Below, one piece after another: positions 7,648 to 57,300 of a stretch of 64,000 bases of DNA (its first letter is position 1; every line of letters begins with the position of its first letter). The stretch is from Escherichia phage vB_EcoM_G17. Under the pieces are notes generated by a model. It saw only the letters and a list, made by a program, of their open reading frames with translations. It was not told the origin of the DNA and searched no databases. A program made the position numbers and the translations under genes. Location of the stretch: the sequence record MK327931.1, one strand, 5' to 3'.

Positions 7648-7655
7648 TATTTATA
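7648..7655 (-). promoter_or_regulatory. T4-type late promoter box TATAAATA upstream of major capsid gene
   Basis: Plus-strand tatttata at 7648-7655 = TATAAATA on minus strand, ~45 nt upstream of the MCP ATG; a gp55-like sigma factor is encoded in the window. Confidence 0.6.
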
Positions 7656-8856: not shown

Positions 8857-8864
8857 TATTTATA
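8857..8864 (-). promoter_or_regulatory. T4-type late promoter box TATAAATA upstream of scaffold gene
   Basis: Plus tatttata 8857-8864 = minus TATAAATA, ~48 nt upstream of ATG at 8809; overlaps a 9-bp inverted repeat (atatctgta/tacagatat, 8835-8862). Confidence 0.55.
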
Positions 8865-14814: not shown

Positions 14815-14822
14815 TATAAATA
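14815..14822 (+). promoter_or_regulatory. T4-type late promoter box TATAAATA
   Basis: Exact tataaata at 14815-14822, ~35 nt upstream of ATG 14857. Confidence 0.55.
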
Positions 14823-14856: not shown

Positions 14857-15693
14857 ATGGCTATGAATCCACTTGCTAAGTACACTAAAATTGAAGAGAT
14901 CAGTACTAAGTTAGTTACAAACGGCGTTATTCCTTATAAAGAAGGAGTTCTAGGTCCAAAAGGTGTCAAATGTGGAGTTTGTGCACGTAGTGCACGTGAT
15001 GAAATGACACTTAATACCCCCGATATGTTACTAAACGGAGATGCAGTATCCCGTGTTATTGAAAACTGTGTTCCTAATGTAATTGACGCTGATGAGTTGT
15101 ATGTAAATGACGTTGAAATGCTTCTTATTGCTATTAAAGTTGCTTCCAAAGAAGAAACATATGATATTAACGTTGTATGTCCTGAATGTGAAAAAGAAGG
15201 TCGATTTGAGCGTAATCTATCATATCTTCTTGAAACTGCACAAGCATTTGAAGAAATCCCATCAATTGATTTAGATAATGGACTCCGTTTAGAATTTAGA
15301 CCACTGACATGGAAAGAATATTCATCGTTTGCTGAACGCATGTTCAGTGAGCAGCAGAAGACTAAGTTTCTTGAAACTGCTGATATTGATAAAGATGAAA
15401 AAGTAAAAATATTTTCTGAAGTATTTGAAAACATGGCTCAACTTAACTTCGACATGATCGGTGGAGTTATTGCAAAAATTATAACACCAGATGGTGATGA
15501 AGTAGTTGAAAAAGAATTTATTAATGAATGGCTTGGACAACAATCGAAGGGAGTACTTAAACTAATTCGTGAAAAAATGGATGAAGTACTTGAAATTGGA
15601 GTATCACATAGTATGGAAGTAGAATGTGATGGATGTAATCATCAATGGGAAATTGATGGACTAAAATATGATCCTAGTCATTTTTTCGAGTAA
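14857..15693 (+). CDS. Hypothetical protein with three CxxC pairs (zinc-ribbon-like); possibly a baseplate hub assembly component
   Basis: 278-aa ORF, GGAG RBS; CxxC pairs KCGVCA, VCPECE, ECDGCN. Late promoter upstream. Functional assignment uncertain. Confidence 0.45.
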   Translation: MAMNPLAKYTKIEEISTKLVTNGVIPYKEGVLGPKGVKCGVCARSARDEMTLNTPDMLLNGDAVSRVIENCVPNVIDADELYVNDVEMLLIAIKVASKEETYDINVVCPECEKEGRFERNLSYLLETAQAFEEIPSIDLDNGLRLEFRPLTWKEYSSFAERMFSEQQKTKFLETADIDKDEKVKIFSEVFENMAQLNFDMIGGVIAKIITPDGDEVVEKEFINEWLGQQSKGVLKLIREKMDEVLEIGVSHSMEVECDGCNHQWEIDGLKYDPSHFFE

Positions 15694-15902: not shown

Positions 15903-16737
15903 TTTTCATATAGCCAGCACATTGTTGCTGGTTTTTTTGGTTTTAAACTACAGAATTATTTGAATTGAATTATGAAAGGATTAATTTTAATATTATTGGA
16001 TTCATCTAACTCATTTCATTCGTTAGCTGAAGAATATTCGTTACTACGTAACTCATATTCATTTAATTAAATTAATTATAAAGAACTTTAAAAGATTTAA
16101 TACTTGACGGGATTTGTTGAGGACATTTTCATCCCCCCGCAGGGGAATGAAGACAATAAAAAAGAGACAATGAAGTCTCTATTTCTTGACGCTGATGGTT
16201 TCAGCATTTATTGTATTGCGAATTTCTTAAAAATATATTAAGAACGAAAGCGGGTTGCTCTGTTTCTCTCTATCGCAGTCATGTGCAACGGTCGTCAGTC
16301 TTAATCATCCTGACACTCACCTGAAAGTCTATACAATCAAACTTCAGGCTGTTTATTAAAATCACTTAATAAACTCCCTTAGCAAATCTGGTAAGGTGCG
16401 ATCCTTATATGTCTATCGAGGAACTCTCTGTATGCTTATCGGAGTTCTTTATTGAGCCGCATTGCCGTGAGGGGTTCAAACTATGCCCACATCTAACGGG
16501 TTTCTTTTGCTCATCGCACTGTTGAACTGCTCATCTGCCATCTACATTTTCGATAGGATCAGGTTCTAATTTATATGCATTTCTGCATTCAACAGGATTG
16601 TCATTACTACAACAAACATTATAGCACAAACTTTAAAGTTGTCTCACTATTTTTATAAAAATATTCATTAAGTACTTAAAATATTGCAAATAACTAATCT
16701 ATAAATATTTTGATAACAAATAGTTTGGTGAGGAATT
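15903..16737. other. ORF-free ~0.83 kb intergenic region with multiple hairpins; candidate structured ncRNA, origin or regulatory region
   Basis: No ORF of 60 aa or more in any frame across 835 bp in an otherwise tightly packed genome; composition looks less AT-rich than flanks (by eye, not counted); hairpins at 16128-16151, 16163-16180, 16191-16205, 16320-16348; 12-nt palindrome aactttaaagtt near 16630. Confidence 0.4.
16700..16707 (+). promoter_or_regulatory. T4-type late promoter box TATAAATA upstream of endo VII-like gene
   Basis: Exact tataaata 16700-16707, ~30 nt upstream of ATG 16738. Confidence 0.55.
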
Positions 16738-17229
16738 ATGAAAAAAAGATTAAAAGATAGTAAGGATGCTGCAAACTATCGAAACGAATTACTAAAGAAA
16801 CAAAATGGAATAGATCCTATAATTAAAGAACCAATAACTAAACCAGTACTGGATCACTACCACTATGGTAACCAACATTGTAGACAAGTTCTTCAAAATG
16901 AAGTCAATGCTTGGGAAGGAAAGGTACAAAACAGCTTCAATCGATATATGAAGCACTTAACTGATAAACCATTATATGAGGTACTCAGAAATCTTGCTGA
17001 TTACTTAGAGCGTAATAACAGCATTCCTGACGATGAACAAGTTATACATCACACTGCACTAACTGTGGATGTTAATAAGTTTAAAAGGCTTCCAGCAACA
17101 CAGCAAAACGCGATTCTGGAAGGGTTAGGAGTTGTCCCTGGTAGTAACACTACTGCTCGTGTAAAGCAAGCCAGAAAGCTGATTAAGGACGGTAAATTAA
17201 ATATGGTTGATATAAAAAAAGGGAGCTAA
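16738..17229 (+). CDS. Endonuclease VII-like protein (T4 gp49 family), cysteine-less variant
   Basis: 163-aa ORF; VLDHYHY and VLQNEVNAWEGKVQNSF align to the endo VII catalytic region (HLDHDHE ... LLCNLCNAAEGQMKHKF) but the four zinc-ligand Cys positions are replaced; GGTGAGG RBS. Confidence 0.6.
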   Translation: MKKRLKDSKDAANYRNELLKKQNGIDPIIKEPITKPVLDHYHYGNQHCRQVLQNEVNAWEGKVQNSFNRYMKHLTDKPLYEVLRNLADYLERNNSIPDDEQVIHHTALTVDVNKFKRLPATQQNAILEGLGVVPGSNTTARVKQARKLIKDGKLNMVDIKKGS

Positions 17230-17247
17230 GGCTCCCTTTATCTTTAA

Positions 17248-19395
17248 TTAGAAAACATCGTCAAGGGTTGCATATTCAACAGTACTGAAACCGTCCTCTT
17301 TAACAACTTTGAGGATTTTTTCAGTCTTAGATAGTAACTCTTCTCTGTGGGAAATAGCATAAACGTTCTTACCACGTACAGCAGCCATATCTTGGAAGAT
17401 AGACCACACACGTAGAACACCACTTGAGTCAAGACCTTGGTCAATCATCTCATCAATGATAAGAATATTAATACTTTGGTATAATGACTCATATGTATCA
17501 CGGAAAGCACAAGATAATGCGATGTTTACCCTTGTACGCTCACCTCTACTAAGCTGTTTATAGTCAAAGTACTGTCCACTCTTCTCAATTTCAACACTCA
17601 AATCATTCAAAAACACAACATTATGCTCAGAACCGCACATATCGATATAGTACTGAAGTCGTGTATTCAAATATGATATATTTTGCTCAATAATACGTTT
17701 ACGGACATAAGAATCCTTGTTTAAAAGTAATTTAACCAAGAAATCTTGGTGATTTGACATTTTATCAAGATTATTATAGTCGCTATAATCAATTGGTACT
17801 AAAGAATCAGTCTTCAGGGTATTAATTTGGCTAATAAATGTGTTAGTAGTCTTCAATTCACGATCTAATTGCTGTGATAATGAATTTACAGTCATTTCTA
17901 ACTCTTTAACTTCATATTTGTTTAATGTATCTGGAACTTCCATTAGTTCATATGAGTTAAGTTCATCATATGATGACATAAGTTCATTTGCATAGATGTT
18001 TATTTGTTCTTCTTCACTCTTTCTGACCAATTCTTGAAGCTTATGTTCATGCATTTGTGCTTCTGAAAGTGTATTATAATATGTCACAGGCTTAGGTGGC
18101 ATATCAAAAATCTCAATACTATCAATTTCTTGAAGTAATGTTTCAATTTCAGAAGAAGAACTATCAATTTTAGCTTGAAGATCATTAATAGTACTTTGGA
18201 TTTTGTCTTTAATTGAAGAAGTATGTTCGTTATGTTCCAATTCAGACATACAAAGTGGACATTTGCTGTTTTCAACTGTTGATAATTTGTCAATTTCAGC
18301 ATTAATTGAACATTCATATCCTTTTAAAGCTATTTTTAGTGAGTTTAGTTTTTGTTCTTTGAAACGTTTTTGGTTATTATTCTCTTTTAGAATACCCTCT
18401 AACTGTTTCCATATCTCCAACTCATTATGATTTTCCAATTCTGCACTAATATCAATAGTTTTTAGCTTATCAATGCTTAGATTTAATGCTCTTTTAGATC
18501 TTTCAAGTTCACGGTCATATGCATCAAATTTTAAAGCCAACTCTTGTACACGGCGTTCGATTTCACCACGCTTTGCGTTATGAATAAGAGCTTTCTCTTT
18601 TATGTCCGCAGCTTCATAGAGGTCATTAAAGTCTAAAGTTTTATATATATTCAACTCTTCATTTAACTTATATACTCTATTATTTTTATCAATTTCAAAC
18701 TGGTTTGCCTGTTCTTGTAGTGCCTCAATACTTTTTTGAATACGTTCATTACTTGCAGCTACAGTTTCATTTTTGAACTTTTCTTGTTCGGCTAAACGTT
18801 TAGTATCCTTATACATCTCCTTTAGCATTTCAGCTTTTTCCGTCAACTGTGTTATTCCAAGAAGTTCTTCTATCATATCACGTTGTTTTTGTGTGGATAA
18901 AGCTAAGAAAGGTTCAACGTTAGCATTCAGTACTACAATATGTTCAAATAATAATTGAGATATACCAAGAATTTCATTCAAATCTTCTTGTGTGTCTTTC
19001 TTTTCTCCCCTTGATTCATCTTCAATTTTATTATCTTTCCCTAAAGTAACAAAATTGAAATACGTGGGACTTCTCCCACGTTCAACCAGATATTGTACAC
19101 CATCTTTTTCAAACTCTACAACTACTTCACAATTTTTTCCATTAGTTTTATTGACTAGGTTAGGAATTTTAATATCGTTACCAATACTTTTACCAAATAA
19201 TCCAAAAACTAATCCTTGAATAATAGCACTTTTCCCTACACCATTTCGACGTCCGGTACTGTCACCACCTTCAATAACTGCATCATTATTTTGACCCAGT
19301 ACTAATGAAATGTCGGAACCATTCAAGTCAATTGATTGTGGTGCATTACCAAATGAAAAGAAGTTCCTCATAGATATACGTGTAATGTTTAGCAT
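17248..19395 (-). CDS. Recombination-related exonuclease subunit, Rad50/SbcC-like (T4 gp46-like)
   Basis: 715-aa ORF; N-terminal Walker A (GRRNGVGKS), central coiled-coil with CPLC zinc-hook motif, C-terminal ABC signature/D-loop region (LSRGERTRVNIAL...LIIDE); AAGGGA RBS. Confidence 0.85.
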   Translation of the reverse strand: MLNITRISMRNFFSFGNAPQSIDLNGSDISLVLGQNNDAVIEGGDSTGRRNGVGKSAIIQGLVFGLFGKSIGNDIKIPNLVNKTNGKNCEVVVEFEKDGVQYLVERGRSPTYFNFVTLGKDNKIEDESRGEKKDTQEDLNEILGISQLLFEHIVVLNANVEPFLALSTQKQRDMIEELLGITQLTEKAEMLKEMYKDTKRLAEQEKFKNETVAASNERIQKSIEALQEQANQFEIDKNNRVYKLNEELNIYKTLDFNDLYEAADIKEKALIHNAKRGEIERRVQELALKFDAYDRELERSKRALNLSIDKLKTIDISAELENHNELEIWKQLEGILKENNNQKRFKEQKLNSLKIALKGYECSINAEIDKLSTVENSKCPLCMSELEHNEHTSSIKDKIQSTINDLQAKIDSSSSEIETLLQEIDSIEIFDMPPKPVTYYNTLSEAQMHEHKLQELVRKSEEEQINIYANELMSSYDELNSYELMEVPDTLNKYEVKELEMTVNSLSQQLDRELKTTNTFISQINTLKTDSLVPIDYSDYNNLDKMSNHQDFLVKLLLNKDSYVRKRIIEQNISYLNTRLQYYIDMCGSEHNVVFLNDLSVEIEKSGQYFDYKQLSRGERTRVNIALSCAFRDTYESLYQSINILIIDEMIDQGLDSSGVLRVWSIFQDMAAVRGKNVYAISHREELLSKTEKILKVVKEDGFSTVEYATLDDVF

Positions 19396-19403
19396 ATAGT
19401 CCC

Positions 19404-20435
19404 TTATAACGATCTGTAAATTTGGATTAGAAGATTTTTATCAAACATTGGTGAATCAATTTCCATAATTTGCTGCAAAACTATCTCATCAACTGATTCA
19501 GTACTTTCAAAACTAACACCATCTTCGATTAATTCTGAAATACTTTGCTTGCTTGTCACAACATTAAACTCTCTAATGTTATAAAGTTTAGTAAATGTAT
19601 CACGAATAAAACTAATCTCATCAGTTGTTATTGATATATCAACTTGAACTTTTGATATTGTGTTATCTTGTAGATAATAGCTTGGATCAGTCAACAATTC
19701 AGAAAGTGTGAATGTTCTATATTTTGGTGCATTATCCCATGACTTGAAAATAGGTTCTTTGCCATGTTCAAGAATCATCACACCTCTTGCATCATCCCAT
19801 GTATCGGAAAAATTATGTGGAAAACAATTACCAGTATAAACTACACGAGTTCCTTTTGAAGTTGTTTTTGACTGTCGTTTATGAAAATGTCCACTAAAAA
19901 CATACTCACATCCACCAAAAGAACCTTCTGTTTCTTTTCCATGATCAGGCATTTCTACCATCTTGTTAAGCAAGTAACCTGGTAACTCTAAGTGACCAAA
20001 AACATACTTACTTTTTAGTTGAGGTAACAACTTATATTCATCTTCAATCATAAATGGAATGAAAGTACAATCATCAAAGGTTGTAATTTCATTAATGAAT
20101 TCTATATTTTCATAAACTTGAGCCATATTGATACTTGTTATATCACGTTTGTTTTTATGATACATATCATGGTTGCCGACTAAAAAATATACTTTTTCAA
20201 AATTATCATTTAATAATTGAAGAATTTGTAAACCATAGTTTAGTGTTTGAATATTGATATTACTTCTATTATGAAAATAATCTCCCATAAAAACACAAAC
20301 TTTGATATTATTTTTTTTAGCTACATCAATCATGAATTTAATGAAGTTTAAACAATCTTCATTGTGTTGCTTGCTGTTATTCTTTAAACCTAAGTGAATA
20401 TCAGTGAATGTAATTGCTTTATCAAACAGAGCCAT
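19404..20435 (-). CDS. Recombination-related nuclease subunit, Mre11/SbcD-like (T4 gp47-like)
   Basis: ORF track 19404..20453 (TTG); probable ATG at 20433-20435. Calcineurin-like phosphoesterase motifs (TDIHLG, GDYFH, GNHD, GHLE, GHFH); adjacent to the Rad50-like gene. Confidence 0.8.
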   Translation of the reverse strand: MALFDKAITFTDIHLGLKNNSKQHNEDCLNFIKFMIDVAKKNNIKVCVFMGDYFHNRSNINIQTLNYGLQILQLLNDNFEKVYFLVGNHDMYHKNKRDITSINMAQVYENIEFINEITTFDDCTFIPFMIEDEYKLLPQLKSKYVFGHLELPGYLLNKMVEMPDHGKETEGSFGGCEYVFSGHFHKRQSKTTSKGTRVVYTGNCFPHNFSDTWDDARGVMILEHGKEPIFKSWDNAPKYRTFTLSELLTDPSYYLQDNTISKVQVDISITTDEISFIRDTFTKLYNIREFNVVTSKQSISELIEDGVSFESTESVDEIVLQQIMEIDSPMFDKNLLIQIYRSL

Positions 20436-21261
20436 CTTCATTTTTCCTTTCAATCATGTTCAATTCAATTTCAATTTGACGTGTATGTGATGGCGTAAAG
20501 CCATGCATTTCAAGTAAATCATCACGTATATTTCGAACATTTTTCTCACTATTCAATATAGAACGAAAACTATTGTTTACGAATGATGTATAGTAAGAGA
20601 AAGGATTTAGCTGAACTGCTGGTTTATCTTTTTTATAAAGAATGCTCTCTTTAAAGAGAAGTGCGTTTTTAACTAATTGTATTCTTGCATCACCCATCAT
20701 TTCATCTAAGTATGTATAGTTTCTGTAATTAGATTTATGAGAGATTTCCTCAGCAAGTTTAATGAACATCTTCCCTAGTTCATTTGTAATTTTACCATGA
20801 ACAGTACTGAATTCACCAGTTTCAAGATCTCCTTTCCAATGAGAACGACATACTTCATAGAGAATTCCTTCATTATCTACAATGTAATGCTTGAATGGTT
20901 CAAAGTTAACTCTAGTGTCGGGTGGAATATGTTCATCAGTGATAACACGAATAACAACTTCATCGATTGGAACATCAGTGATAACTAAATTATTTTCATC
21001 TGCATATTCTTTAGCTTTTTTAGCACTCATACTTTCCTTTTCACGAATACTATCAAGCATTTCATTGTTTAGTCGTTTGATTCGTGCTGCTTTGGCTTTT
21101 TCAAGTAACTCAGTAGTAATTTCTGACTCATGAAAAACAATATAATCATACATACTATATGATTTGTCTAATAACCAGCAGTATGAAATCTTACTTTTTT
21201 GTATTTCACGAAGTAAATCAGCATTATTGAGATACTTTTTACGCTTTGGCCTATTTGTCAT
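20422..21261 (-). CDS. Late-transcription sigma factor (T4 gp55-like), extended
   Basis: 279-aa ORF; KKYLNNADLLREIQKSK resembles the gp55 N-terminus, with further similarity in two later blocks; about 90 aa longer than T4 gp55; located next to gp47/gp46 homologues as in T4; GGAGAG RBS. Confidence 0.6.
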   Translation of the reverse strand: MTNRPKRKKYLNNADLLREIQKSKISYCWLLDKSYSMYDYIVFHESEITTELLEKAKAARIKRLNNEMLDSIREKESMSAKKAKEYADENNLVITDVPIDEVVIRVITDEHIPPDTRVNFEPFKHYIVDNEGILYEVCRSHWKGDLETGEFSTVHGKITNELGKMFIKLAEEISHKSNYRNYTYLDEMMGDARIQLVKNALLFKESILYKKDKPAVQLNPFSYYTSFVNNSFRSILNSEKNVRNIRDDLLEMHGFTPSHTRQIEIELNMIERKNEDGSV

Positions 21262-21349: not shown

Positions 21350-21357
21350 TATAAATA
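21350..21357 (+). promoter_or_regulatory. T4-type late promoter box TATAAATA
   Basis: Exact tataaata 21350-21357, ~36 nt upstream of ATG 21393. Confidence 0.55.
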
Positions 21358-27388: not shown

Positions 27389-27396
27389 TATAAATA
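27389..27396 (+). promoter_or_regulatory. T4-type late promoter box TATAAATA upstream of endolysin gene
   Basis: Exact tataaata 27389-27396, ~17 nt upstream of ATG 27413. Confidence 0.5.
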
Positions 27397-31924: not shown

Positions 31925-34900
31925 ATGAATGAACGAATTATATGGAGTCCAAAAATGACTAATAATTTTAAGTTTCAACCTACACAGATGGCTGAAGCAG
32001 TACAGAAGAAGCTTTTTATTAAAAGATTGCCTGAGTGGATGCAAGGCTTAGAAGATATTCAAAAAGTCAGTGATGATGTTATTCAACAATGGTTTAATCC
32101 GGCTGAAAACGAATTAGTTGACGGCTATATTGGTGATATGGGTTCTCCTGCCGCTGCTGGTAATATCTTCTTACATGAAAGTACTGTAGCACGTCAACTT
32201 TATCAGTTGTCCACTGCTTACGTCTCAAAAAATGATGATTCGACAATTCGTTCAATTCAATTTTATGATGATCTAGTTGGATACATGAATCATTATGGAG
32301 CACTAACCGATAATGAAAGCCGTTTGTTCAACGGTAAGTTTTATGCATGGACTCCAGCTATTAACCCAAATAAAATGAACAATTTTAGCTCATATCTTTG
32401 GGATACTAAAAACTCTTATAATATTACTTCACCTGATTACATTGTAATGGAACGTGGAGCACTTAATGGTAATACATGGTCACTACAAAACTTTTGGTAT
32501 ACTTTAGGTGAAACATTAGAAGATGGCTCAATATTAACTGAAGAATTAATGCAAGATTCACGTTTTATTCGTGCACGTGCACCAATTATTGAATATAATA
32601 AAAATATTGAGCTAATTAACTACGGTACAAAATTCCGTGGAACTGTTGATCTGTTCTCTGATATTATTAAACCTGAAGATATCGTTCAAAAAGATATTAA
32701 TAGTGGTATACGTATTGATGGTATTATTCCGCAAGATGGAATGCGTATTCTATTCACCAGTATTGGTAACAATGGTGAAAACAATAGAATTTATAATGTA
32801 TATGTGAAAAAAATGCAAGATGGTACTCGTGTTTATGGTTTAGCACTAGATCCAGAAGAAGAAACCGAATCACGCCCAAGTGGTGAACCTCAAGATGGTG
32901 ATGTTGTTCTAATCACTAAAGGTAATGAGTATGGTAATAGTTCTATGTACTGGAATGGATCTTTGTGGGTTCGTGCACAATCAAAAACTAGTGTTAACGT
33001 ATTCCCTAAATTCCAACTTTATGATCGTAATGGTATCAAACTTGACAACAGTACTACATATCCATCAAGTAACTTTAAAGGTTCAGAGTTGTTTGGTTTT
33101 AAAATAAATTACAACTATGCAACTGATAGTGTATATGGATATAACATTGAACTTGGTGATTATAATTATTACATTTATGAAAACTTTTTACAATCCCAAC
33201 GTTATACCTATGACCATCTTGGAAAAGAAGTTGAAATTGATGGTTTATACTATTATAACATTATTGATGAAAATAATGAAATGAATCTTCAAACCGATTG
33301 GGTTCGTTCAGAAGAGTACTCTAAACAATTTGTAAAACAAACTCCACAAGTCCAACGTACTGATATGTATCGTGTATTCAGTACTGTTTATGATATGGAA
33401 GTTTTTAAAGAACCAGTTGATGGTATGTATGCATATGTTATTGAAGTTGATAGAACATATCAGTACTATAAAGCTGACCGTGAAACTTATCTAGATTGGC
33501 ATCCAATTACTGGTGATGGTGTTCAGATTGTAAAATATGACCATACATTCGAATTGGCACAAAAAGTTTTAGATAATGATTCTGATATTATTGAAGTTGT
33601 GGTTGATGGTGTTGATGTGTCCAAATATACCAAAAATGTTTCAAAAGGTCAAGTACAAAGCATCACTCTAGATAGTACTGTAGAATTGGATGAAGATTCT
33701 GTTATTCAAATTAGAACTTATAGCAGTACTGTAACTCCTAATAAAGAATTAGGTGCATATGAAGTTCCAATCAACCTACAAAATAACCCATATAATTCTA
33801 ATATTATATACATTAACCAAGGTGACTACACTTTACATTTTCAGGATATTATTCAAAAGAACATTACACGTGGTTCTTCTGATGATTTCAATGACTATGA
33901 AGAACGTTTGGCTAAAGGATTGGTTAATAATGGCGTAGGTACTAAAATTATCCAAAATGAAGCATCTATGCTTCCATTGATGGCACATACTGCAAATGAA
34001 GATATTGATTTGTTTGAAGCAACTATGTTTATGCAATCTGAATATTTTAGATTCATTAATAAATTTAATACACAAATGCTTCGTATGTATGATGAAAATC
34101 CATCAGACTTTTTACAAAATAGTGCTGCAAACATTGTTGATGCAATTTTAACTACTATTAATATGGGACGTGATAGTTCATTCCCATTCTATTATGATAA
34201 TGTTGGAAGTACTTCTGGATTCATTCGTGCATTTATACCACCAACACCACAGTTCTTAGGTATTCTTCAAGCATATGTACCAGAAAAAGCGACATTCCTC
34301 ACTGCTGGTAGTAAACCAAGCTGTTATAACATCAGTCATACTGGTATTATTTCCAAAGCATACCGTGTTATCAATGGTGTTGATAAAATGGATGATGTTG
34401 TATATGAATTAGAAAATAGAATTTTTAATAGTATTGATAATAAATTCAAAGATGTTGATTACGTACCAGTATTGAATAGTGATGACCTTTTCCCTACACC
34501 ATATTTCACTAAAACTGAATATAGTGCTGAAGAGAAACAAACATTATTACTACGTGGATACATTAACTTCACCGCAACTAATGGTATCAGTAATAGTACA
34601 CATGATTATGATCCTAACAATTGGAGAACTTGGAACTATACTGGCACTTATTATGTAGTTAATGGTCAAAGTACTGAAATTCCTGCACGTGGTTCATGGC
34701 GTGCCATTTACACTGACCAATATGGTACATATCGCCCAGCTACCCATCCGTGGGAAATGTTTGGCTTTACACAACGTCCAACTTGGTGGAACCAAGAATA
34801 CGAACCAACGGCTGTTCAAGTTGGTGAACGTGATAGTGATGTTGTATATGTATATGAAGCACTTGTTATGAATGAGCAAGGTGATTTAGTTCCTAGTGGT

Positions 34901-37900
34901 CTTTGGGATATTGACGGAACTATTGGAGATAGCAGTACTGGAACTATTTTATTTGGTGATCGTCGTGGTCAATATGACAAATATAAAAGATTTGGTGTAC
35001 AGCCATTCAAAATTACAAAAACTGGAAATAAAACATCTTCTGGTATTGATATTTGTGTGGTTGAATATATTGCACCTGAAATTTTAGGTTTAGTGTCTGG
35101 ATCTTTAAATCATAGAGCAGAACCTTGGACATATGGTGATATGGGTGACATGGAATTTACATACATGAACACTACATTGTTTGCATATGACCAAATGATG
35201 CTTTTGTATAAAGCTAAACCAGCACAATTTGCTAACTATTTCTGGGATACCCGCAACGATAACTTAAAAGAAGTATTCACTGATGGTTCACAATTCCTTT
35301 ATGGTGATACACGTAAGCGTATTAATTTTGATAAAAATACAGTAGTTCATGGTGAAAATAGCACAAGAACAATTGGTTATCAAATGTTTGTAAGTGACCA
35401 TTTGATGTATCAAAATAAAAATATTACCACCAAGTATGGGGATGTAGTTCGTTCTTCTTATATAAATGTTGGTCATAAAATTGGAGGATTTACTAAAGCA
35501 GATCAGCTAACATTCAATGCTAAATCTTTCGGTCTTATTTCACAAGAAAACCAAACCATTGGTCTTGTTCGTTCTAATAATATCCGTGATGAGCAAATGA
35601 GTGCGATCAAAATTACTTGGAATGGTAGTGCATATCAGATTGATGGATATGATCTAGTTGGTGCTAAATTTAAATATAAACTTCCAGTAAAAAATGGTAG
35701 AAAAGTAACTCTTAAATTGGAAAACCGTAATGTTGTTCATTATAATGAATGGAAGTCTGAAGCTTCAATTGAATATGGTAAAGTTTTCAATAGTTACCAA
35801 GAAGTTTATACTTTTATTTGTGGATATGGTGAATATCTTAAAGAACATGGTTGGATTTTTGAAGATGTAAATGATAGTGGTGCTCAACAAGATTGGAACA
35901 CTATTGCTAAAGATTTCGTGATCTGGAGTCAGAATTCTCTAGTAACTGGTGAATTTATTTCTTGTACCCCAAGTGCTGCAAACGCTAAATTTGGGGCAGA
36001 CTTTGGTTCAGTACAATCTATTACGCAAAATAATGGTGGTGTATGGTCATTACTTGATGATAATAACCAAGGTATTCGCCAATATGAAATTGAAACTTCT
36101 CGTATTGGAAATATCTTCACTGTTAGAACTTTAGAATCTAATAAACGCATTGCATTGATTCGTTTAAGTTTGTGTTCATATGAACATGCTGTTATTTTTG
36201 ATGATAAAACTATTTTTGGTGATTACATTTATCAGCCAACATATGGTTCTATTCAAGAACTAATTAAAATGTATGGATATATTACTGGTTCATGGACTGG
36301 TCGCCTACAAGCTCCTGGATTTATTATCTTGGAAGCTGGAACACTACCATCATTTGAAAAATTAGTGTCGGATTTCCAACATTATTATGATAGTGAAACT
36401 CCAGTAAGTGATGTACAATTACAAGAGTTGTCAAACCATTTGATTGGTTATCAATCTCGTGATTATCTACAGCGTATGATTAGTAGTGATGTTAGTCGTG
36501 TTGATTTCTATAAAGGATTCATTCACGATAAAGGTACTAACCAAGTTTTAGAACGTGTACTTCGTGTTTCTAAATCATATGACACTGATGAATATAAAGC
36601 ATTACAAGAATGGGCATTTAAAATTGGTACATATGGTAATATTGATGGTAAGAAAAACCTTCAATTTAAACTAATCAATGACCAATTTAAACAACAACCT
36701 CAAATGGTTTCTTTTGATGTAAATGCAACTTCAAATGGTAATGGTAATCATATTGTATACTTCGGTGAGCAAGGTAAAGATCCTCGTTGGATTACACGTC
36801 CAAATGGTAAGTTCTCATTCCCAATGCGTAGTGGAAGAAGTGAAAACATCCAACTTCCAGATATTGGTCCAGTAACATTGGATGAAGTATCGTACACAAC
36901 AAAAGATTTCAGTACTGCATATAATGACCGCATAACTTATACTAATGGTAAAGGTGAAAATCCTGAATCTGTGTGGATGTTTAAAGACGGTAATGGTTTG
37001 TGGAACATTTTTGAATTGGTTGATACTAATGTACAAATGGTTTCTATAACACCTATTGAAAATACCGATGTGTATGCTGAACAATTTTGTAAAGTAACTT
37101 TAACTGATAATGTACCACTTGAAGATGGTGATTATTATTATTTTGTTGATGAAACTAACTTTATGCCAGATACTTTAACAGTAGAAAGTCAATATTATAC
37201 TGCTGGTTCTGATCCTAAAGTTATGGTAGTTCCATTTGACACTTCTATTGATATTGAATTTACTGATCCAGATACACGTCCACGTTTGTATCGTTATGTA
37301 TCACGTTTTGCCAGTACTGATGATCGTCAAGCTTACATTGACAAGAAATATAGTTTTAAAGCACCACAAAGTACTTTATTTGATCGTCCAACGACATATG
37401 ATGAACGTACTAACATTACTGAGCTATATCTAAACGTTTATGACCCAATTAATGGTGTTATTCCAGGTGCGGCTATGCAAAACGTAACATATACTTCACC
37501 AGTTGATCCTGCACAGTATAATAGTAATGGAGAGTTAATCCAGGCTTGGGGTGCTGATAAAGTTGGTCAAGTATGGTGGAACACTAGCACTGCATTTTAT
37601 TTGGATTATACTCGTGCAATTTATGACGCAGACGGTAATGTTGATATTGATGCAACCAATGAATACAAACGTTACAACTGGGGCCGTTTGTTACCACATA
37701 GTACCATTGATGTGTTAGAGTGGGTTTGTTCACCAGTTGAGCCATATAACTGGGACAAATACTGTAAAGATGTTGCTAAGAAAAACAAAAATAATACTAT
37801 GTATCTACCAAGTGGAACTGCACTTGAAGATAATTATAGTACATTTTTGGAATATGATAGTTCAACTGATAGTTATGTAACAAAATACTATTTCTGGGTA

Positions 37901-40900
37901 CGTGATACAATTTATGTACCACCACTACATACCAGAACGAAATCATGTACTGACATTGCTCGTATTATTAAAGATCCAACACAGCTAAACATTCCTTGGT
38001 TCGCTCCAATAAATGAAAACTCGTTTATTCTTAGTAATATGCAATTTAAAGTGAATGATGATACCAGTATTTTAACTGTTTCTTATTACATGGATAGTAC
38101 TGAAGTTGTTAAACATGACCAGTATCAACTATGTAAAGAAGGTGACAGCTATAACTTTAACCCACTAATTTGGGATTCAATGTGGAACTCACTAATTGGT
38201 CAAGAAACAACTGAATCAGGTTCTGTGATTAATTTATTATATCCAGATGTTGATAACGGTTTAGGATCAAACAAAACTTGGTTCCAAAATGTTATAGAAG
38301 CTCGTAGAAACTTTGTAGAAAGTGCTAATAATTATTATAGGTCACAAAACATAACCACTAATAGTGTTGTTATGGAAGATGTGTTTAATGTTAAAACCAC
38401 TGAAGTTAACCCTAATGAAGTTTCTTTCCGTGTGTTGTCTTACAATAATGAATTAGTTATTGCAGTTGAAAGTGATAAATTTAAAGAAAATGACGCTGTT
38501 ATTTTAAGTACTAGTGGATATCTACCAAATCCATTAACTTCTAGTGCTGTTTATTTTATTCACTTCGACGAAAATGGATATATTCAGTTAATGAATAGTC
38601 CAGCAAACGCGGGTAGTGTTGTTACTATAACGTTAGAAAACAAAGGTGAGGGACAACATAAAATGATTAAACAATCTGATTATGTTGAATCACTAGGAAC
38701 CTCATTAGACATGACTCAGTACTGGTCATATGCTGATTGGTATGATGTTGGATATGATAGTAACACGACTTATACTCAAGAGTCAAGCTTAGAAGATGCT
38801 AATACTAAAAACTACCAAGTTGGCGATATTATCAGAGTTACCGATAGTGAAAACATTTGGACATTGTATATTAAATCACAATCACGCGATTCAATTTATT
38901 GGAAAGCGATTGGTCGTGAAAACAGTACAGTTGAACTCAATGATATGCTTTACGCAGATTATAGTGTTCATAATGATAATGGTTCACTAAGCAATCGTGA
39001 AATCAACGTTCGTAAAGCACTAGCTTTACTCAAAAATTCTTTCGATTTACATCAAAGCGAAATTGTTTTTGATATGGTCAAATATGTACATGTTGAACAA
39101 AGTGTTGTGGATTGGGTATTTAAAACATCATATATCTATATTGTTGGTTTGGAACAATCATTAGTTCAAAACTATTCAAACGATAATTTGATTAATCAAA
39201 TTGTTGAATATTTTGAAGAAGTTAAACCTTATAGAACTAAAATTCGTTCACAAATAGAGCAAAAGACATCTGATGATGATTTAATAAAAGGTCTATGTAA
39301 TGATTTAGATCCTAATGGATATATTTTCGTTGATGGTTCTTGGATCAAAACTGAAAAAGATATTTGGGATTATGAGTACGCTCAATTTAATGAAATTACC
39401 CAAAAATGGGAACAGGTAGGTTCACTACCAAGTGATTTCGTTACACCAAATAGAAGATTCCAAGAAATTGATATTATTATGCATTATGATAATATTCAGT
39501 GTAAACCAAATGAAGATTTGGCAAGCATAAATGAATTAGTAAGTGTTAATAACAAATATCAATCCAATGAAAAGGATGCTGTTAGTAACTATGAATTACA
39601 ACGTTATATATATTCTTTCCCAGAATATAGTGAAGAAACTTTCGATCTTCTTATTGCTTATCAAATGCAAATCTACTATCCAGAATTGGATGTAACACTA
39701 GGAACAGCATATGGCGTTAACCAGTGGTATAAAGACCATGCGGAAGATTTAGAAGCAACTGATGAATTCACTGCTACATTGGAACGTGTTTATAAAGAAT
39801 CAACGCATAACGATATGTTTACTGACCTTAGACAATATGTTCAGTATAACACATTGGCAAACCGTTTGAAACTTTATAAAGATATAAGTGATGAGAAAAT
39901 TCACGATGAAGTTGGATGTGGATTTAGTGGACTTACTTATAATGACAATCCTAGTACTAGACTTCCATTAGGCTTTTCTTCTAGTAATGATTATAACTAT
40001 GGATATTTTGAAATAAGCAGTGAATTGTATCAAAAATACATTTCATTAATTAAAGATAAAAATCCTGACGCATCAGACTATGAAGTAAAAGTTAAACTTG
40101 AAGTTGAGTATGGTGTATATGTTTATCGTTATGATGAAGTAGGTGGTGATACCCGTTTCTATACTGATGCTATTCACGTATTAGCAGGTATGAGAGGGTT
40201 ATTCGACAAAGACGCTACTGATAAGTACGAAAAAGCTGAAGAGATTCTTAGTAAGACCCCAATTGATATCTATGCAATTACAATGATTCCACGAAAATAT
40301 GTTTACTTAAATGTTAACGGTGTATATCAAAGTATACCTGATGAACAAAGTATTGATGATTTCATGGAAGATTATTTTATCACAAATGGTGAAATGGTTG
40401 AACTAGCTGAAATAAATCTTGATGATTTACCACTAGATCAAAATAATCCAATGTATTCTGATTATCAATATATACTTGATAGTATTACTGAAGCTAAGTA
40501 CTTCAATGATATGAATGCATTTGATAACCTAGCATTGGAATCTCAAACTTCTTCAATAAAATGGGAAGTTAAAGATGATGAAGTTGATCCTTATATTGTG
40601 GATATATCTGACATAAACCCTTCTGGGCGTGATGTAGGTCAAATTAGATTTACAGTTGATGGATATGGGTTTGACAATGTATCTCTTGTACAATTACGTG
40701 ATAACAGCAGATATCAAACTGAAGGTATGGCAATTATCAATCCATATAAACATACAGAAGCAATTGTAAGTATTCCTTCATATGCTAAGATTGAAAATGA
40801 TATTAATAAAACAACATCGAAGTTTGATGAAAAATATTTCTATCGTGTGAGATCTATTAATAGCTTAACTGAAGCAGAAATAGTTGACAATGACCTATCT

Positions 40901-41926
40901 GATGGTGATAAGGTGATGATTTTCACTCCTGATGGTGAAGATTTTGTGAGATATCAAAATCACACATGGGAAACAATCTTGCGTGTATCTAACATCAAAA
41001 ACAATACAACTCCGATCCTATTCACTGTAAGAAATACAGGTAAGGAAACGATTGAATTGATTGATGAGAGTACTGGTGCAGTTCTCCGTTATGATAACAT
41101 CACTCTTGCACAACAAAATGAGCCAGTACAGCCTCTAGCATTGAACATTGTTCGTGTTAGAACATTTGCTGACCCTGAATTTGTCAAGAATGGTATTAAA
41201 TTGTATGAACAAAATAGAAATTACACCATTGATGTAATTAATTATGATGTTTTCTACGATACTACTTTAAATGGTGGTAAGTACAATGACGGAATAACAC
41301 CAGATGACGTTGACGTTTGGATAATCTCTAATGAAATATTTGATGTTGATGGAATTACTATCGATAACGGTTATAACTTACCAATTACGGGTGCGGGAGT
41401 TCTTAGTGAATTGGCAAGAACTAAAATGACTGATAGTTTAGAAATCAACGTTATCGAATATGATTCAAGTGTTATTCAACCGTTTAGAAATAATGAAGGG
41501 ATATGGGTTTATGGATTCCCAATGGTTGACGGTATGTATATCGGTGTTGTTGGTGGTACTGTTACTAACATCACAACCATTAGTGAAGAAAATACAACCT
41601 ATGTTTCTCAACCTAAATCAATAAGTCCTTATAGTATTAGAAATAATGTTTTATCCGGTTCAGCCGCAAACATGAATGATATTATATCGATTGGATATGA
41701 AAAAGTTGAAGTTAGAAATGCAAATAATTTACTCCGTGGTGTAATGTATAGTGCAGAACATGATTTTAAACTTAATACTACATATTCTTTCAATGGAATT
41801 AATTTAGGTAATTATGATATGTTAAAACGTTACACACAAAATAGTTACACTATAGATCTTTCAGTATACACTGATAGTCTACAAGTTAGTGGTAATGATA
41901 TTAAAAATATATTATTAGTTAAGTAA
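31925..41926 (+). CDS. Giant virion structural protein (3333 aa by ORF track; gp7 position, baseplate wedge or fiber-like)
   Basis: Uninterrupted 10-kb ORF directly downstream of the gp6-like gene. Alternative start ATG 31955 has a GGAG RBS; a near-consensus CATAAATA late box lies at 31911-31918. Asn/Tyr/Thr/Asp-rich, no recognisable catalytic motifs. Confidence 0.7.
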   Translation: MNERIIWSPKMTNNFKFQPTQMAEAVQKKLFIKRLPEWMQGLEDIQKVSDDVIQQWFNPAENELVDGYIGDMGSPAAAGNIFLHESTVARQLYQLSTAYVSKNDDSTIRSIQFYDDLVGYMNHYGALTDNESRLFNGKFYAWTPAINPNKMNNFSSYLWDTKNSYNITSPDYIVMERGALNGNTWSLQNFWYTLGETLEDGSILTEELMQDSRFIRARAPIIEYNKNIELINYGTKFRGTVDLFSDIIKPEDIVQKDINSGIRIDGIIPQDGMRILFTSIGNNGENNRIYNVYVKKMQDGTRVYGLALDPEEETESRPSGEPQDGDVVLITKGNEYGNSSMYWNGSLWVRAQSKTSVNVFPKFQLYDRNGIKLDNSTTYPSSNFKGSELFGFKINYNYATDSVYGYNIELGDYNYYIYENFLQSQRYTYDHLGKEVEIDGLYYYNIIDENNEMNLQTDWVRSEEYSKQFVKQTPQVQRTDMYRVFSTVYDMEVFKEPVDGMYAYVIEVDRTYQYYKADRETYLDWHPITGDGVQIVKYDHTFELAQKVLDNDSDIIEVVVDGVDVSKYTKNVSKGQVQSITLDSTVELDEDSVIQIRTYSSTVTPNKELGAYEVPINLQNNPYNSNIIYINQGDYTLHFQDIIQKNITRGSSDDFNDYEERLAKGLVNNGVGTKIIQNEASMLPLMAHTANEDIDLFEATMFMQSEYFRFINKFNTQMLRMYDENPSDFLQNSAANIVDAILTTINMGRDSSFPFYYDNVGSTSGFIRAFIPPTPQFLGILQAYVPEKATFLTAGSKPSCYNISHTGIISKAYRVINGVDKMDDVVYELENRIFNSIDNKFKDVDYVPVLNSDDLFPTPYFTKTEYSAEEKQTLLLRGYINFTATNGISNSTHDYDPNNWRTWNYTGTYYVVNGQSTEIPARGSWRAIYTDQYGTYRPATHPWEMFGFTQRPTWWNQEYEPTAVQVGERDSDVVYVYEALVMNEQGDLVPSGLWDIDGTIGDSSTGTILFGDRRGQYDKYKRFGVQPFKITKTGNKTSSGIDICVVEYIAPEILGLVSGSLNHRAEPWTYGDMGDMEFTYMNTTLFAYDQMMLLYKAKPAQFANYFWDTRNDNLKEVFTDGSQFLYGDTRKRINFDKNTVVHGENSTRTIGYQMFVSDHLMYQNKNITTKYGDVVRSSYINVGHKIGGFTKADQLTFNAKSFGLISQENQTIGLVRSNNIRDEQMSAIKITWNGSAYQIDGYDLVGAKFKYKLPVKNGRKVTLKLENRNVVHYNEWKSEASIEYGKVFNSYQEVYTFICGYGEYLKEHGWIFEDVNDSGAQQDWNTIAKDFVIWSQNSLVTGEFISCTPSAANAKFGADFGSVQSITQNNGGVWSLLDDNNQGIRQYEIETSRIGNIFTVRTLESNKRIALIRLSLCSYEHAVIFDDKTIFGDYIYQPTYGSIQELIKMYGYITGSWTGRLQAPGFIILEAGTLPSFEKLVSDFQHYYDSETPVSDVQLQELSNHLIGYQSRDYLQRMISSDVSRVDFYKGFIHDKGTNQVLERVLRVSKSYDTDEYKALQEWAFKIGTYGNIDGKKNLQFKLINDQFKQQPQMVSFDVNATSNGNGNHIVYFGEQGKDPRWITRPNGKFSFPMRSGRSENIQLPDIGPVTLDEVSYTTKDFSTAYNDRITYTNGKGENPESVWMFKDGNGLWNIFELVDTNVQMVSITPIENTDVYAEQFCKVTLTDNVPLEDGDYYYFVDETNFMPDTLTVESQYYTAGSDPKVMVVPFDTSIDIEFTDPDTRPRLYRYVSRFASTDDRQAYIDKKYSFKAPQSTLFDRPTTYDERTNITELYLNVYDPINGVIPGAAMQNVTYTSPVDPAQYNSNGELIQAWGADKVGQVWWNTSTAFYLDYTRAIYDADGNVDIDATNEYKRYNWGRLLPHSTIDVLEWVCSPVEPYNWDKYCKDVAKKNKNNTMYLPSGTALEDNYSTFLEYDSSTDSYVTKYYFWVRDTIYVPPLHTRTKSCTDIARIIKDPTQLNIPWFAPINENSFILSNMQFKVNDDTSILTVSYYMDSTEVVKHDQYQLCKEGDSYNFNPLIWDSMWNSLIGQETTESGSVINLLYPDVDNGLGSNKTWFQNVIEARRNFVESANNYYRSQNITTNSVVMEDVFNVKTTEVNPNEVSFRVLSYNNELVIAVESDKFKENDAVILSTSGYLPNPLTSSAVYFIHFDENGYIQLMNSPANAGSVVTITLENKGEGQHKMIKQSDYVESLGTSLDMTQYWSYADWYDVGYDSNTTYTQESSLEDANTKNYQVGDIIRVTDSENIWTLYIKSQSRDSIYWKAIGRENSTVELNDMLYADYSVHNDNGSLSNREINVRKALALLKNSFDLHQSEIVFDMVKYVHVEQSVVDWVFKTSYIYIVGLEQSLVQNYSNDNLINQIVEYFEEVKPYRTKIRSQIEQKTSDDDLIKGLCNDLDPNGYIFVDGSWIKTEKDIWDYEYAQFNEITQKWEQVGSLPSDFVTPNRRFQEIDIIMHYDNIQCKPNEDLASINELVSVNNKYQSNEKDAVSNYELQRYIYSFPEYSEETFDLLIAYQMQIYYPELDVTLGTAYGVNQWYKDHAEDLEATDEFTATLERVYKESTHNDMFTDLRQYVQYNTLANRLKLYKDISDEKIHDEVGCGFSGLTYNDNPSTRLPLGFSSSNDYNYGYFEISSELYQKYISLIKDKNPDASDYEVKVKLEVEYGVYVYRYDEVGGDTRFYTDAIHVLAGMRGLFDKDATDKYEKAEEILSKTPIDIYAITMIPRKYVYLNVNGVYQSIPDEQSIDDFMEDYFITNGEMVELAEINLDDLPLDQNNPMYSDYQYILDSITEAKYFNDMNAFDNLALESQTSSIKWEVKDDEVDPYIVDISDINPSGRDVGQIRFTVDGYGFDNVSLVQLRDNSRYQTEGMAIINPYKHTEAIVSIPSYAKIENDINKTTSKFDEKYFYRVRSINSLTEAEIVDNDLSDGDKVMIFTPDGEDFVRYQNHTWETILRVSNIKNNTTPILFTVRNTGKETIELIDESTGAVLRYDNITLAQQNEPVQPLALNIVRVRTFADPEFVKNGIKLYEQNRNYTIDVINYDVFYDTTLNGGKYNDGITPDDVDVWIISNEIFDVDGITIDNGYNLPITGAGVLSELARTKMTDSLEINVIEYDSSVIQPFRNNEGIWVYGFPMVDGMYIGVVGGTVTNITTISEENTTYVSQPKSISPYSIRNNVLSGSAANMNDIISIGYEKVEVRNANNLLRGVMYSAEHDFKLNTTYSFNGINLGNYDMLKRYTQNSYTIDLSVYTDSLQVSGNDIKNILLVK

Positions 41927-54365: not shown

Positions 54366-57300
54366 ATGTACTCAATAAAAACTGACTTAGATATTACTGG
54401 TGCTGGTACGGTTGGTAAGGATCTTTTAGTCAAAGGAAATGCTGTTTTCAACAATAACCTAACTGTAAATGGTACTGTAACTTTTGCAAATGCAACTTTT
54501 ACTGCCATTGAATCATCAACTGCCAACATTACATCTACTTTAGATGTAGGTGGCAAAGCAACACTTTCTGGTGGTCTTGGTGTTGAGGGTAATACTACAA
54601 TCGGTAGTGCAGTTGTCGGGTCTGATACAGCAACAATTAATTCAAACGCTACCTTTAACGGTACTGTATCAGTTGGTTCTGATTTTACACAAACTGCTGG
54701 TACAACCACTCTACAAGCAACTAAAGTTAAAAACTTAGAAGTTGCTGAAACAACAGCATTTAAAGGTAATATTACTGCTGATGTTGGGACTACTGCTGCA
54801 TTTGATAAAATTACTGCTAATACCGCAGAAATTACTAATGTAAGTACAACAGATATTAGTAGTACTGGTACTGCTACATTTAACGATGTGACAATTAGTG
54901 GTACACTTGGTGGTGAGTTTAATCTATCTGACTTAAATGCAGTAACATTGAACGTTACTGGTGCATCTAACCAACAAGGTGCAGTAACTTTCGGTGCTAA
55001 CGTAACTGGTATTAACAGTACTGCTACTTTTAAAGACATTCGTATTGGTTCTAACTCTGAATCACAAACCTTCAGATTAAGCTTCCCTTACACTGCTCCT
55101 GGTAAACGCCCAACTGTTATTCTACAAAACGAAATTCAGTCCGAGCTAATGTCACCTGCAAACTTGACAGTATTGACCTCTGCTTCTTTTGGTAATGCGT
55201 CATTATCTTCTTATGGTATTACTGGTAATGGTCTAAACAAATTAGATTATCTAACAGTTTCTGGTAACAATACACAATCACCAGACACACCACTATTAGA
55301 AGTTCAAAAAGGAAAAACTAAAGTTGCTGACTTTGAAGTAACCGGAACTGCAACTATTCCAAATATCGAAAGTACTGGTACTGCTAATTTTAATAACATT
55401 AATGTTTCTGGTCTTCTTGGTGGAACGTTCCAACTAGACGATATTAATGCAGTATCTTTGAACGTTACTGGTGTAACTTCATTAGTTGGTGGTGTTACTC
55501 TTGGTTCTAATATTACTGGTTATAACAGTACTGCATCCTTTAAAGCTATCAGCTTAGGTCAAAATAGTCAAGATGCGGCAGTGAAACTAGGTTTTGGATA
55601 TACTGCACCAGGTCAACGCCCAACAGTTATTCTACCTAACGAAGTTCAATCAGAAGTCGTTTCTCCTTCTACATTGAACGTTCTTAAAACAGCAACTTTC
55701 GGTAACGCTTCTCTTTCCACTTATGGTATTACTGGTAACGGTCTAAACAAACTAGATTACCTAACTATTACTGGTAACGAAACACAAGCTCCAGGTACAC
55801 CATTCCTACAAGTTGGTGGTAAAGCAATTCTTAATGATGTTGAATTTACTGGAACAGTAACTGGACTAACTGTTGATGTTAGTGGGCAGGATCTAACACC
55901 TAATTCTGTTGTCGCGGCAGCAAATATTAAAGGTGCAACACTTGAAAGTACTGGTAACACTACCGTGGGTGCTAAACTAACTGTTACTGGTGATATTGCT
56001 GGTACAACTGCAACTCTTTCTGGTGCATTATCCGCTGGTTCAGTAAGTTCTGGTTCTATTACTGGTACAACTTCTGTATCTGCACCAACAATTAGTGCAT
56101 CTACTGAAGTAACGGCCCCTACTATCACTGCGAGTGGAACTGTAAGTGGGCAAACAATTAACGGTACTAATATTAGTGCAACAACTCTGACTGCACCAAC
56201 TATTAGTGGTAATACTAACTTTACAGAAAATGTTGATATTACTGGTAGCTTAACTGTTGGTTCTCTAGACTTGAGCACTACCGATATTAATGCTAAATCA
56301 ATCACTACTACTGCTGGTGCAACTATTGGTGGTGATTTAGTAGTTCAAGGCTCTTTTGATTTATCAGCAGCCGACCTTAATGTTAAATCATTAACTACTT
56401 CTGGTATTGTTAAAAGTAATGATCTTGTTAATGCTAACGTACTTCCAGTACTTAATAGTACTACCATAACGGCAACTACTGTTAATGCTGATGATATAAC
56501 TGTTACCGGATCTGCTAATTTGGGTACAATTTACTCAAGCTCATCTGTTCTAGTTGGGTCAACTTTAACTGTAACTGGTGAAACTACAACTGCATCGTTG
56601 GTTACCCCAACCATTTCAAATGCAAGTGGTGTCACTATTTCCAATAATACAAATGTAACTGGTGACCTAACTGTTACTGGTGCAGTTATTCCAGGCTCTA
56701 TCGATCTAGCAACAACTGATGTTAATGCTAAATCCATTACTACTACTGCTGGTGCAACTATTGGTGGTAACCTAACTGTTAATGGTACAGTAGATCTTAC
56801 TACGGCTGATGTTACTGTCAAATCTTTAACTAGTACTGGTGCAATTGTTAGTAATGAATCCACAATTAGTAGTGTTCTACCTAAACTTCAAAGTACTGAT
56901 GCAACTATTGCAACCCTTGGTTCAACAACTGCAAATATTACTAATTTGAATGTTACTGGTGCATCTACCGTAGCTGACGTAACTTCTTCAGGTAAAGTTA
57001 AAGCAGTTTCTGTAGAAACCCCAACAATTAGTAACGTTGATGGTGTATCTATTTCCAATAATACATCTATTACTGGTGACCTAACAGTTTCTGGTACAGT
57101 AACACCAGGTGCAATTGATTTGAGCACAACTGATGTAAGTGCAAAATCCATTACTACTACCGCTGGAGCAAATATTGGTGGAGATCTTGTTGTTTCTGGT
57201 ACAGTTGATTTAAGTGGTGCTGATGTATCTGTTAAATCTCTAACAAGTACTGGTATTATTACAGTTAGTAGTGCAGAAGGTATCAACGTTCTACCTAAAG

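Follow-up and report, generated by a model that had tools for sequence, protein, structure and literature searches.

Can an endonuclease VII resolve branched DNA once its structural zinc site is gone? The question is raised by a gene of Escherichia phage vB_EcoM_G17 located in the 64,000-nucleotide stretch of record MK327931.1 that was analysed here (the window). The founding member of the junction-resolving enzymes is T4 endonuclease VII, in which a Cys4 zinc knuckle, described as structurally required, fastens the first hairpin to the N-terminal end of the catalytic helix. An earlier note on the locus had described the product as a homologue that keeps the catalytic residues and has lost all four zinc-ligand cysteines, and had offered two readings of this state, a zinc-independent fold variant or a repurposed protein that is not a resolvase. 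On the evidence given below, we consider it quite probable that the gene encodes an active, late-expressed debranching/Holliday-junction nuclease, the equivalent of T4 gp49, in which the zinc knuckle has degenerated to a metal-free Asp-Pro turn. The elements of the gene referred to in the text are the following:

16738..17229, + strand: coding sequence of the 163-aa endonuclease VII (gp49) homologue, with an ATG start, supported by an intact ORF, homology and predicted fold
16727..16733, + strand: Shine-Dalgarno sequence GGTGAGG, read directly from the sequence
16813..16824, + strand: D26-P27-I28-I29 codons, the putative degenerate first zinc knuckle (T4 C23-L24-I25-C26), placed by the alignments
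16852..16863, + strand: D39-H40-Y41-H42 codons, the catalytic D-H-x-H element (T4 D40, H41, H43)
16882..16884, + strand: R49 codon (T4 R54, the active-site arginine)
16894..16920, + strand: Q53-N-E-V56-N57-A-W-E60-G61 codons, the former second CxxC (Q..V) followed by the catalytic N and E
17047..17052, + strand: H104-H105 codons, where the C-terminal domain begins (T4 H105-P106)

The gene in database records

The 6 kb around the endonuclease VII gene matched Escherichia phage Sharanji at 100% identity, and identity was 99-99.7% to PBECO4, 121Q and further jumbo coliphages of Asteriusvirus type (~350 kb). Most of those Asteriusvirus-type records label the gene 'endonuclease VII', and the same name is given to it in relatives annotated with pharokka/PHROG. 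The identity of the gene is therefore already known from annotation, and both GenBank records and the literature (PMC5259590) already report that it is homologous to T4 gp49. The Sharanji record (GenBank OR545507.1, identical to the window) labels the gene 'hypothetical protein', a label that we ascribe to a sub-threshold Pfam score and to the lack of an NCBIfam model. The score of the protein with PF02945 (Endonuclease_7) was 14.8 bits (E 0.028), below the gathering threshold of 23.6 bits, in an alignment of residues 13-91 with profile positions 13-81 of 82, and the NCBIfam scan of the protein returned no match; both results are attributed to the missing cysteines. A precomputed PF02945 match is present in a few close relatives, such as P0018 and P0044.

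Homology to T4 gp49 and predicted fold

The comparisons were made with a T4 gp49 reference sequence matched residue for residue to PDB entries 1en7 and 1e7d. Homology of the window protein to endonuclease VII is far beyond chance and covers its whole length: residues 1-150 aligned with positions 1-155 of the 159 positions of the PHROG 423 profile (E 1.3e-35), the same profile that T4 gp49 matches end to end (E 5.4e-61). Identity to T4 gp49 is only 24-34%, with a BLASTP E value of 8e-5. Alignment of a 16-member clade profile with T4 gp49 by hhalign gave a probability of 95% (E 3.5e-8, 113 columns), and a search of the PDB with the clade HMM returned T4 endonuclease VII as its sole match (E 5.7e-6). 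The clade profile was needed for this result, as a phmmer search of the PDB with the single sequence gave no match.

The AF2 model, a single-chain prediction in which metals are not modelled, had a pLDDT of 90, with values of 95-96 in the blocks over the former zinc site. The top three Foldseek matches of this model were all T4 endonuclease VII (probability 1.0, TM 0.67, 162 columns). The elements of the gp49 fold are predicted in order, namely an N-terminal helix, a beta-hairpin His-Me finger, a long helix and a C-terminal helical domain, and the C-terminal domain retained in the window protein is of the gp49 type.

Zinc positions and catalytic residues

One and the same register was obtained with five methods (BLASTP, hhalign, the PDB HMM search, a MAFFT alignment with 147-150 homologues, and structure comparison). 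The T4 zinc ligands C23, C26, C58 and C61 correspond to D26, I29, Q53 and V56 of the window protein, and the T4 catalytic residues D40, H41, H43, R54, N62, E65 and G66 to D39, H40, H42, R49, N57, E60 and G61. The claimed loss of all four zinc-ligand cysteines was thus borne out, with D26/I29/Q53/V56 at these positions in every alignment and a single cysteine in the protein; BLASTP, hhalign and the profile searches agree that no cysteine falls at a zinc position, and the comparison of the predicted structure with T4 endonuclease VII, at the pLDDT and TM values given above, returned the same register. The retention of the catalytic Asp, His, Asn and Glu was likewise confirmed (D39, H40, H42, N57 and E60), and the strings quoted in support of both statements (NGIDPII, LDHYHY and VLQNEVNAWEG) are all present in the protein.

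A count made without alignment found one cysteine in the whole protein, C48, so that a Cys4 site is impossible under any alignment. The Cx2-4C ... CxxC signature of the structural zinc site is absent, and the catalytic signature 'DHHRN' is present as D39, H40, H42, R49 and N57. The name DHHRN was given to the family in a 2018 survey, which also describes the active-site role of T4 R54 (PMC6083498). In a 16-sequence sample of the clade, extending to 58% identity, residues D26, P27, D39, H40, H42, R49, N57, E60 and G61 were invariant.

Spread of the zinc-less form among relatives

The clade profile was run exhaustively with HMMER against 1.84 billion representative proteins and recovered 574 relatives at E<=1e-3. 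T4 gp49 and several phage homologues were added to the best 150 of these 574 for a MAFFT alignment, in which 147 sequences were counted; positions are given in T4 numbering. Among these best 150 of 574, H41, H43, R54 and N62 were present in 147/147 sequences and D40 and G66 in 146/147 each, and the first histidine of the C-terminal domain (H104 in the window protein) was kept in 139-141 of about 150. Of the same 147 sequences, 75 had no cysteine at any of the zinc positions, 57 had one, 3 had two, 3 had three (CCHC) and 9 had all four, with none or one in 132/147. The alignment-free count, which used regular expressions for an N-terminal Cx2-4C and a C-terminal CxxCN motif, found 130 of the 150 representatives (best 150 of 574) to be without both CxxC motifs, and also all 120 close relatives (at least 58% identity).

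These sequence counts indicate that a missing Cys4 site is the common state of a large subfamily and is not peculiar to the window phage. The singular loss that the earlier note had implied is contradicted by the 130 of 150 representatives (best 150 of 574), and the sharing of the same zinc-less form by a large phage group makes the window protein a modest curiosity and not a one-off oddity. The zinc-less form was found in slur12 (rV5-like Vequintavirinae) and in BMB50 (Ralstonia Okabevirinae, podophages); CCCC was kept in Vibrio phage Vp_R1, the SP6-like ACG-C91 and Campylobacter CC_R7, and the zinc positions of RIO-1 read CCHC.

The replacements at the zinc positions were restricted in kind. 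Among the 147 sequences (best 150 of 574), position 23 was D (76) or C (68) and position 24 was P in 91; in the same set position 26 was T or L, position 58 was polar (H, D, S or Q) and position 61 was small and apolar (V, A, S or T). This pattern suggests that the knuckle has kept a CPxC-like shape in which Asp stands for the first Cys, with a polar pair (23/58) and an apolar pair (26/61) proposed to replace the tetrahedral site. T4 E65 is usually listed as an active-site residue; its position was occupied by E in 66 and by L in 59 of the 147 sequences (best 150 of 574), and by Ile, Met or Val in the others. In a crude NJ tree built from this short alignment with the four zinc columns removed, the zinc-competent forms were scattered, with a Fitch minimum of 10 changes; from so weak a tree this is no more than a hint of repeated loss of the zinc site.

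As a separate observation, the slur12 homologue (L001 1414-2019) has four cysteines away from the canonical Cys4 positions, at places that correspond to residues 30, 37, 48 and 55 of the window protein. It is conceivable that the metal site has been relocated in that homologue.

Genomic neighbourhood and putative late transcription

The neighbouring genes and putative transcription signals are located as follows:

14857..15693, + strand: baseplate-hub gene, the upstream neighbour
17248..19395, - strand: SbcC/gp46-like gene, convergent with the endonuclease VII gene
20422..21261, - strand: gp55-like late sigma factor gene, according to annotation
16700..16707, + strand: TATAAATA, a T4-type late-promoter consensus 30 nt before the ATG, putative promoter
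17218..17239, both strands: hairpin AAAGGGAGC-TAAG-GCTCCCTTT, overlapping the stop codon and T-rich on either side

The SbcC/gp46-like gene is followed by SbcD/gp47-like and gp55-like genes. The order portal / baseplate hub / endonuclease VII / gp46 / gp47 / gp55 is kept in E9.1, in Pectobacterium phage CBB and in Vibrio phage 2.275.O, with endonuclease VII identities of 63% in CBB and 61% in the Vibrio phage. A tblastn search located the gene at 365 places in 364 records, that is, one copy per genome. Given this conserved order and copy number, we regard it as a stable core gene and not as a mobile nuclease. CBB carries T4-type gp46/47, UvsX, UvsW and gp32 along with this 'endonuclease VII' homologue, and its gene inventory names no other resolvase (PMC5259590). 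No other resolvase appears in the E9.1 annotation of the locus and of the first 100 kb, where almost all genes are called 'hypothetical protein'.

A sigma-70 promoter scan yielded 6 sites against 6.4 expected, no better than chance, and the T4 late motif was sought instead. The window contains 6 copies of TATAAATA, with 11 expected by chance, at 7648-7655(-), 8857-8864(-), 14815-14822(+), 16700-16707(+), 21350-21357(+) and 27389-27396(+). All six lie in the structural-gene region, outside which the motif is depleted, and each precedes by 16-47 nt an ATG on the same strand that has a Shine-Dalgarno sequence; this zone accounts for only ~1.5% of positions. Three copies precede genes annotated as structural or baseplate-hub genes, and those at 7648 and 8857 lie in the structural region. 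Together the six motifs resemble a late-promoter regulon of T4 type in which the gp55-like protein would be the sigma factor, and the placement of TATAAATA suggests that the endonuclease VII gene is most likely expressed late. At the other end of the gene, the hairpin has a GC-rich stem of 9 pairs and was found on both strands; terminator-like sites in the region numbered 6 against 0.7 expected. The hairpin reads as a bidirectional terminator common to the endonuclease VII gene and the convergent SbcC/gp46-like gene. In T4, too, gene 49 is served by a late promoter and takes part in packaging.

Proposed function and alternative explanations

By analogy with T4, the gene product would be a jumbo-phage recombination endonuclease VII, a His-Me-finger (beta-beta-alpha-metal) nuclease whose dimer, domain-swapped in T4-type resolvases, would cleave branched DNA, Holliday junctions included, and so remove the branches left by recombination and replication before the 350-kb genome is packaged by the headful mechanism and while packaging goes on. 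H40 would be the general base, as in T4, D39 and N57 would hold the catalytic Mg2+, and H42, R49 and E60 would assist catalysis. The Asp-Pro turn D26-P27 is proposed to face the polar Q53 and the apolar pair I29/V56 to fill the rest of the former zinc site, so that the fold would be held without zinc. The gene would be transcribed with the late structural genes from the TATAAATA promoter, transcription ending at the bidirectional terminator. We infer the nuclease activity, the substrate, the dimerisation, the packing of D26-Q53 and I29-V56 and the zinc independence, the last from the sequence and the predicted model; for junction cleavage and a part in packaging, the synteny and the late-promoter motif are circumstantial evidence. 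The biological role is most likely unchanged with respect to T4 gp49.

Weighing against this proposal, the T4 substitutions C23S and C61S abolish DNA binding and activity, according to the account of Giraud-Panis 1995 given in PMC6083498, which indicates that the zinc site is not easily dispensed with; according to the same account, C26S or C58S alone is tolerated. A zinc-independent fold variant, one of the two readings of the earlier note, is nevertheless favoured by the confidence of the predicted fold, by the invariance of the catalytic residues and by the search for a conserved alternative Cys/His cluster among ~150 relatives (best 150 of 574), in which none was found.

The result of that search bears on a further explanation, in which a structural metal is still bound through non-cysteine or relocated ligands and the protein is metal-swapped and not metal-free. 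Candidate arrangements are D26 and Q53 with water, a hard cation such as Mg2+ or Ca2+, or the clade-invariant residues C48, H73, H104 and H105. Position 23 is D or C in 147/150 relatives and appears to be still constrained, and the pairs D23+D58 (29/150) and D23+H58 (18/150) could hold a cation (all among the best 150 of 574), but D26, I29, Q53 and V56 would give two weak ligands at most. A relocated site could be seen in the invariance of C48, H73, H104 and H105 in the 16-sequence sample of the close clade, and in the shifted cysteines of the rV5-like homologue. However, C48 opens strand beta2 (DSSP E48-53), five residues before Q53 and ~16 Å from it by strand geometry, and hence would be unable to share a site with D26 and Q53. 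Among relatives (best 150 of 574), position 48 holds V (69), C (51) or I (21), behaving as a core position and not as a ligand, and C48, H73 and H105 occur together in only 4/150 (best 150 of 574). Considering this distance and the rarity of the combination, a relocated zinc site is unlikely in the window protein, and the metal-swapped explanation as a whole is judged unlikely; in some lineages, the D/D (29) and D/H (18) pairs might accommodate another cation. A zinc site made of C48, H73, H104 and H105 was rejected as a candidate, these residues being unconserved beyond the close clade and C48 lying far along the strand from the old site.

The second reading of the earlier note, an endonuclease VII-fold nuclease repurposed away from junction resolution as a homing or free-standing enzyme (F-CphI-like), a host-DNA-degrading enzyme or an anti-defence enzyme, seems quite unlikely. 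The endonuclease VII motif does occur in non-resolvases, such as F-CphI in homing and Hpy99I in restriction (PMC6083498, PMC2699513), but the similarity of the window protein to gp49 goes beyond the motif and spans the full length, C-terminal domain included. In favour of repurposing, a change of substrate could have come with the zinc-site loss, and half of the wider family (best 150 of 574) has Leu or Ile in place of E65. Against this stand the fixed synteny across genera and the single copy per genome, whereas mobile nucleases are patchy, and the position of the gene next to the gp46/47 recombination genes with a late-promoter motif, as expected of a packaging debranching enzyme; moreover, no second resolvase is annotated in the parts of E9.1 examined (the locus and the first 100 kb) or in the CBB inventory. 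We consider it highly improbable that the protein is a remnant of endonuclease VII that binds DNA but has lost catalysis. Some His-Me fingers have become DNA binders, for instance Smad MH1 (PMC5714182), and the structural zinc site is lost here, yet every catalytic residue is kept and is invariant or nearly so over ~150 diverged relatives (best 150 of 574), a signature of selection for catalysis.

Comparison with known systems and implications

With respect to T4 endonuclease VII (gp49; PDB 1en7, 1e7d, 2qnc), which has the Cys4 site, the window protein has D26, I29, Q53 and V56 in its place. Its direct orthologues in Rak2-like jumbo phages (121Q gp594, PBECO4, CBB_248) and in rV5-like phages share the zinc-less D-P knuckle; identity is 99-100% within Asteriusvirus and 63% for CBB, and for rV5-like phages it is ~49%, measured over the catalytic half; the annotations of these Rak2-like and rV5-like orthologues carry no remark on the missing zinc site. 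Hpy99I and F-CphI, of the 'DHHRN' family, keep the CxxC...CxxC zinc site and differ in having their own accessory domains and substrates, whereas the window protein has gp49-type helical domains. In each Hpy99I repeat, one CxxC motif is on the first hairpin and the other on H1, the first helix (PMC2699513). Zinc-knuckle-less His-Me finger/HNH nucleases (PMC5714182, citing phage P1 Ref) offer a precedent for a core that is stable without a treble-clef knuckle, but they belong to other families and scaffolds and are not endonuclease VII-type resolvases. The 2018 survey of 313 homologues reported a 'highly conserved pattern', with DHDH between CX2-4C and CX2C (PMC6083498). No description of a zinc-less endonuclease VII subfamily was found in the literature searched, most subscription journals lying outside its coverage, and the group is apparently undescribed.

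More broadly, we lean towards the view that the structural zinc of endonuclease VII, regarded as a conserved hallmark from the T4 work onwards, is dispensable and has been discarded, possibly several times, over a large phage resolvase group whose members are active zinc-free junction resolvases. The groups concerned would be Rak2-like jumbo phages, rV5-like phages, Ralstonia Okabevirinae and many metagenomic lineages. The zinc would have been substituted by the Asp-Pro turn with a polar residue, or perhaps by a hard cation in the D/D or D/H variants. If this is true, these proteins represent a natural experiment on the replacement of a treble-clef zinc knuckle. The zinc-less subfamily would correct the description of the family in which the two Cys motifs are highly conserved, and would explain both the Pfam and NCBIfam misses and the 'hypothetical' labels in some genome records. 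The significance is limited: other members of the His-Me finger superfamily are already known to have lost the zinc knuckle, and the role is most likely unchanged, so that to a specialist the finding should be modestly surprising and of interest chiefly for structure and annotation. Zinc-free, single-cysteine enzymes of this type might also be convenient reagents for mismatch or junction cleavage.

Other features of the window

The 835 nt upstream of the endonuclease VII gene (15903-16737) contain no ORF of more than 45 aa, and only 'hypothetical' ORFs of 32-45 aa are annotated in this stretch in other records. Rfam and tRNA scans of the window, this stretch included, gave no match. Terminator-like hairpins are present in it on both strands, at 15912-15933 and 16163-16180. 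The structural region of the window also contains two very large ORFs, of 3333 aa at 31925-41926(+) and of 1841 aa at 54366-59891(+).
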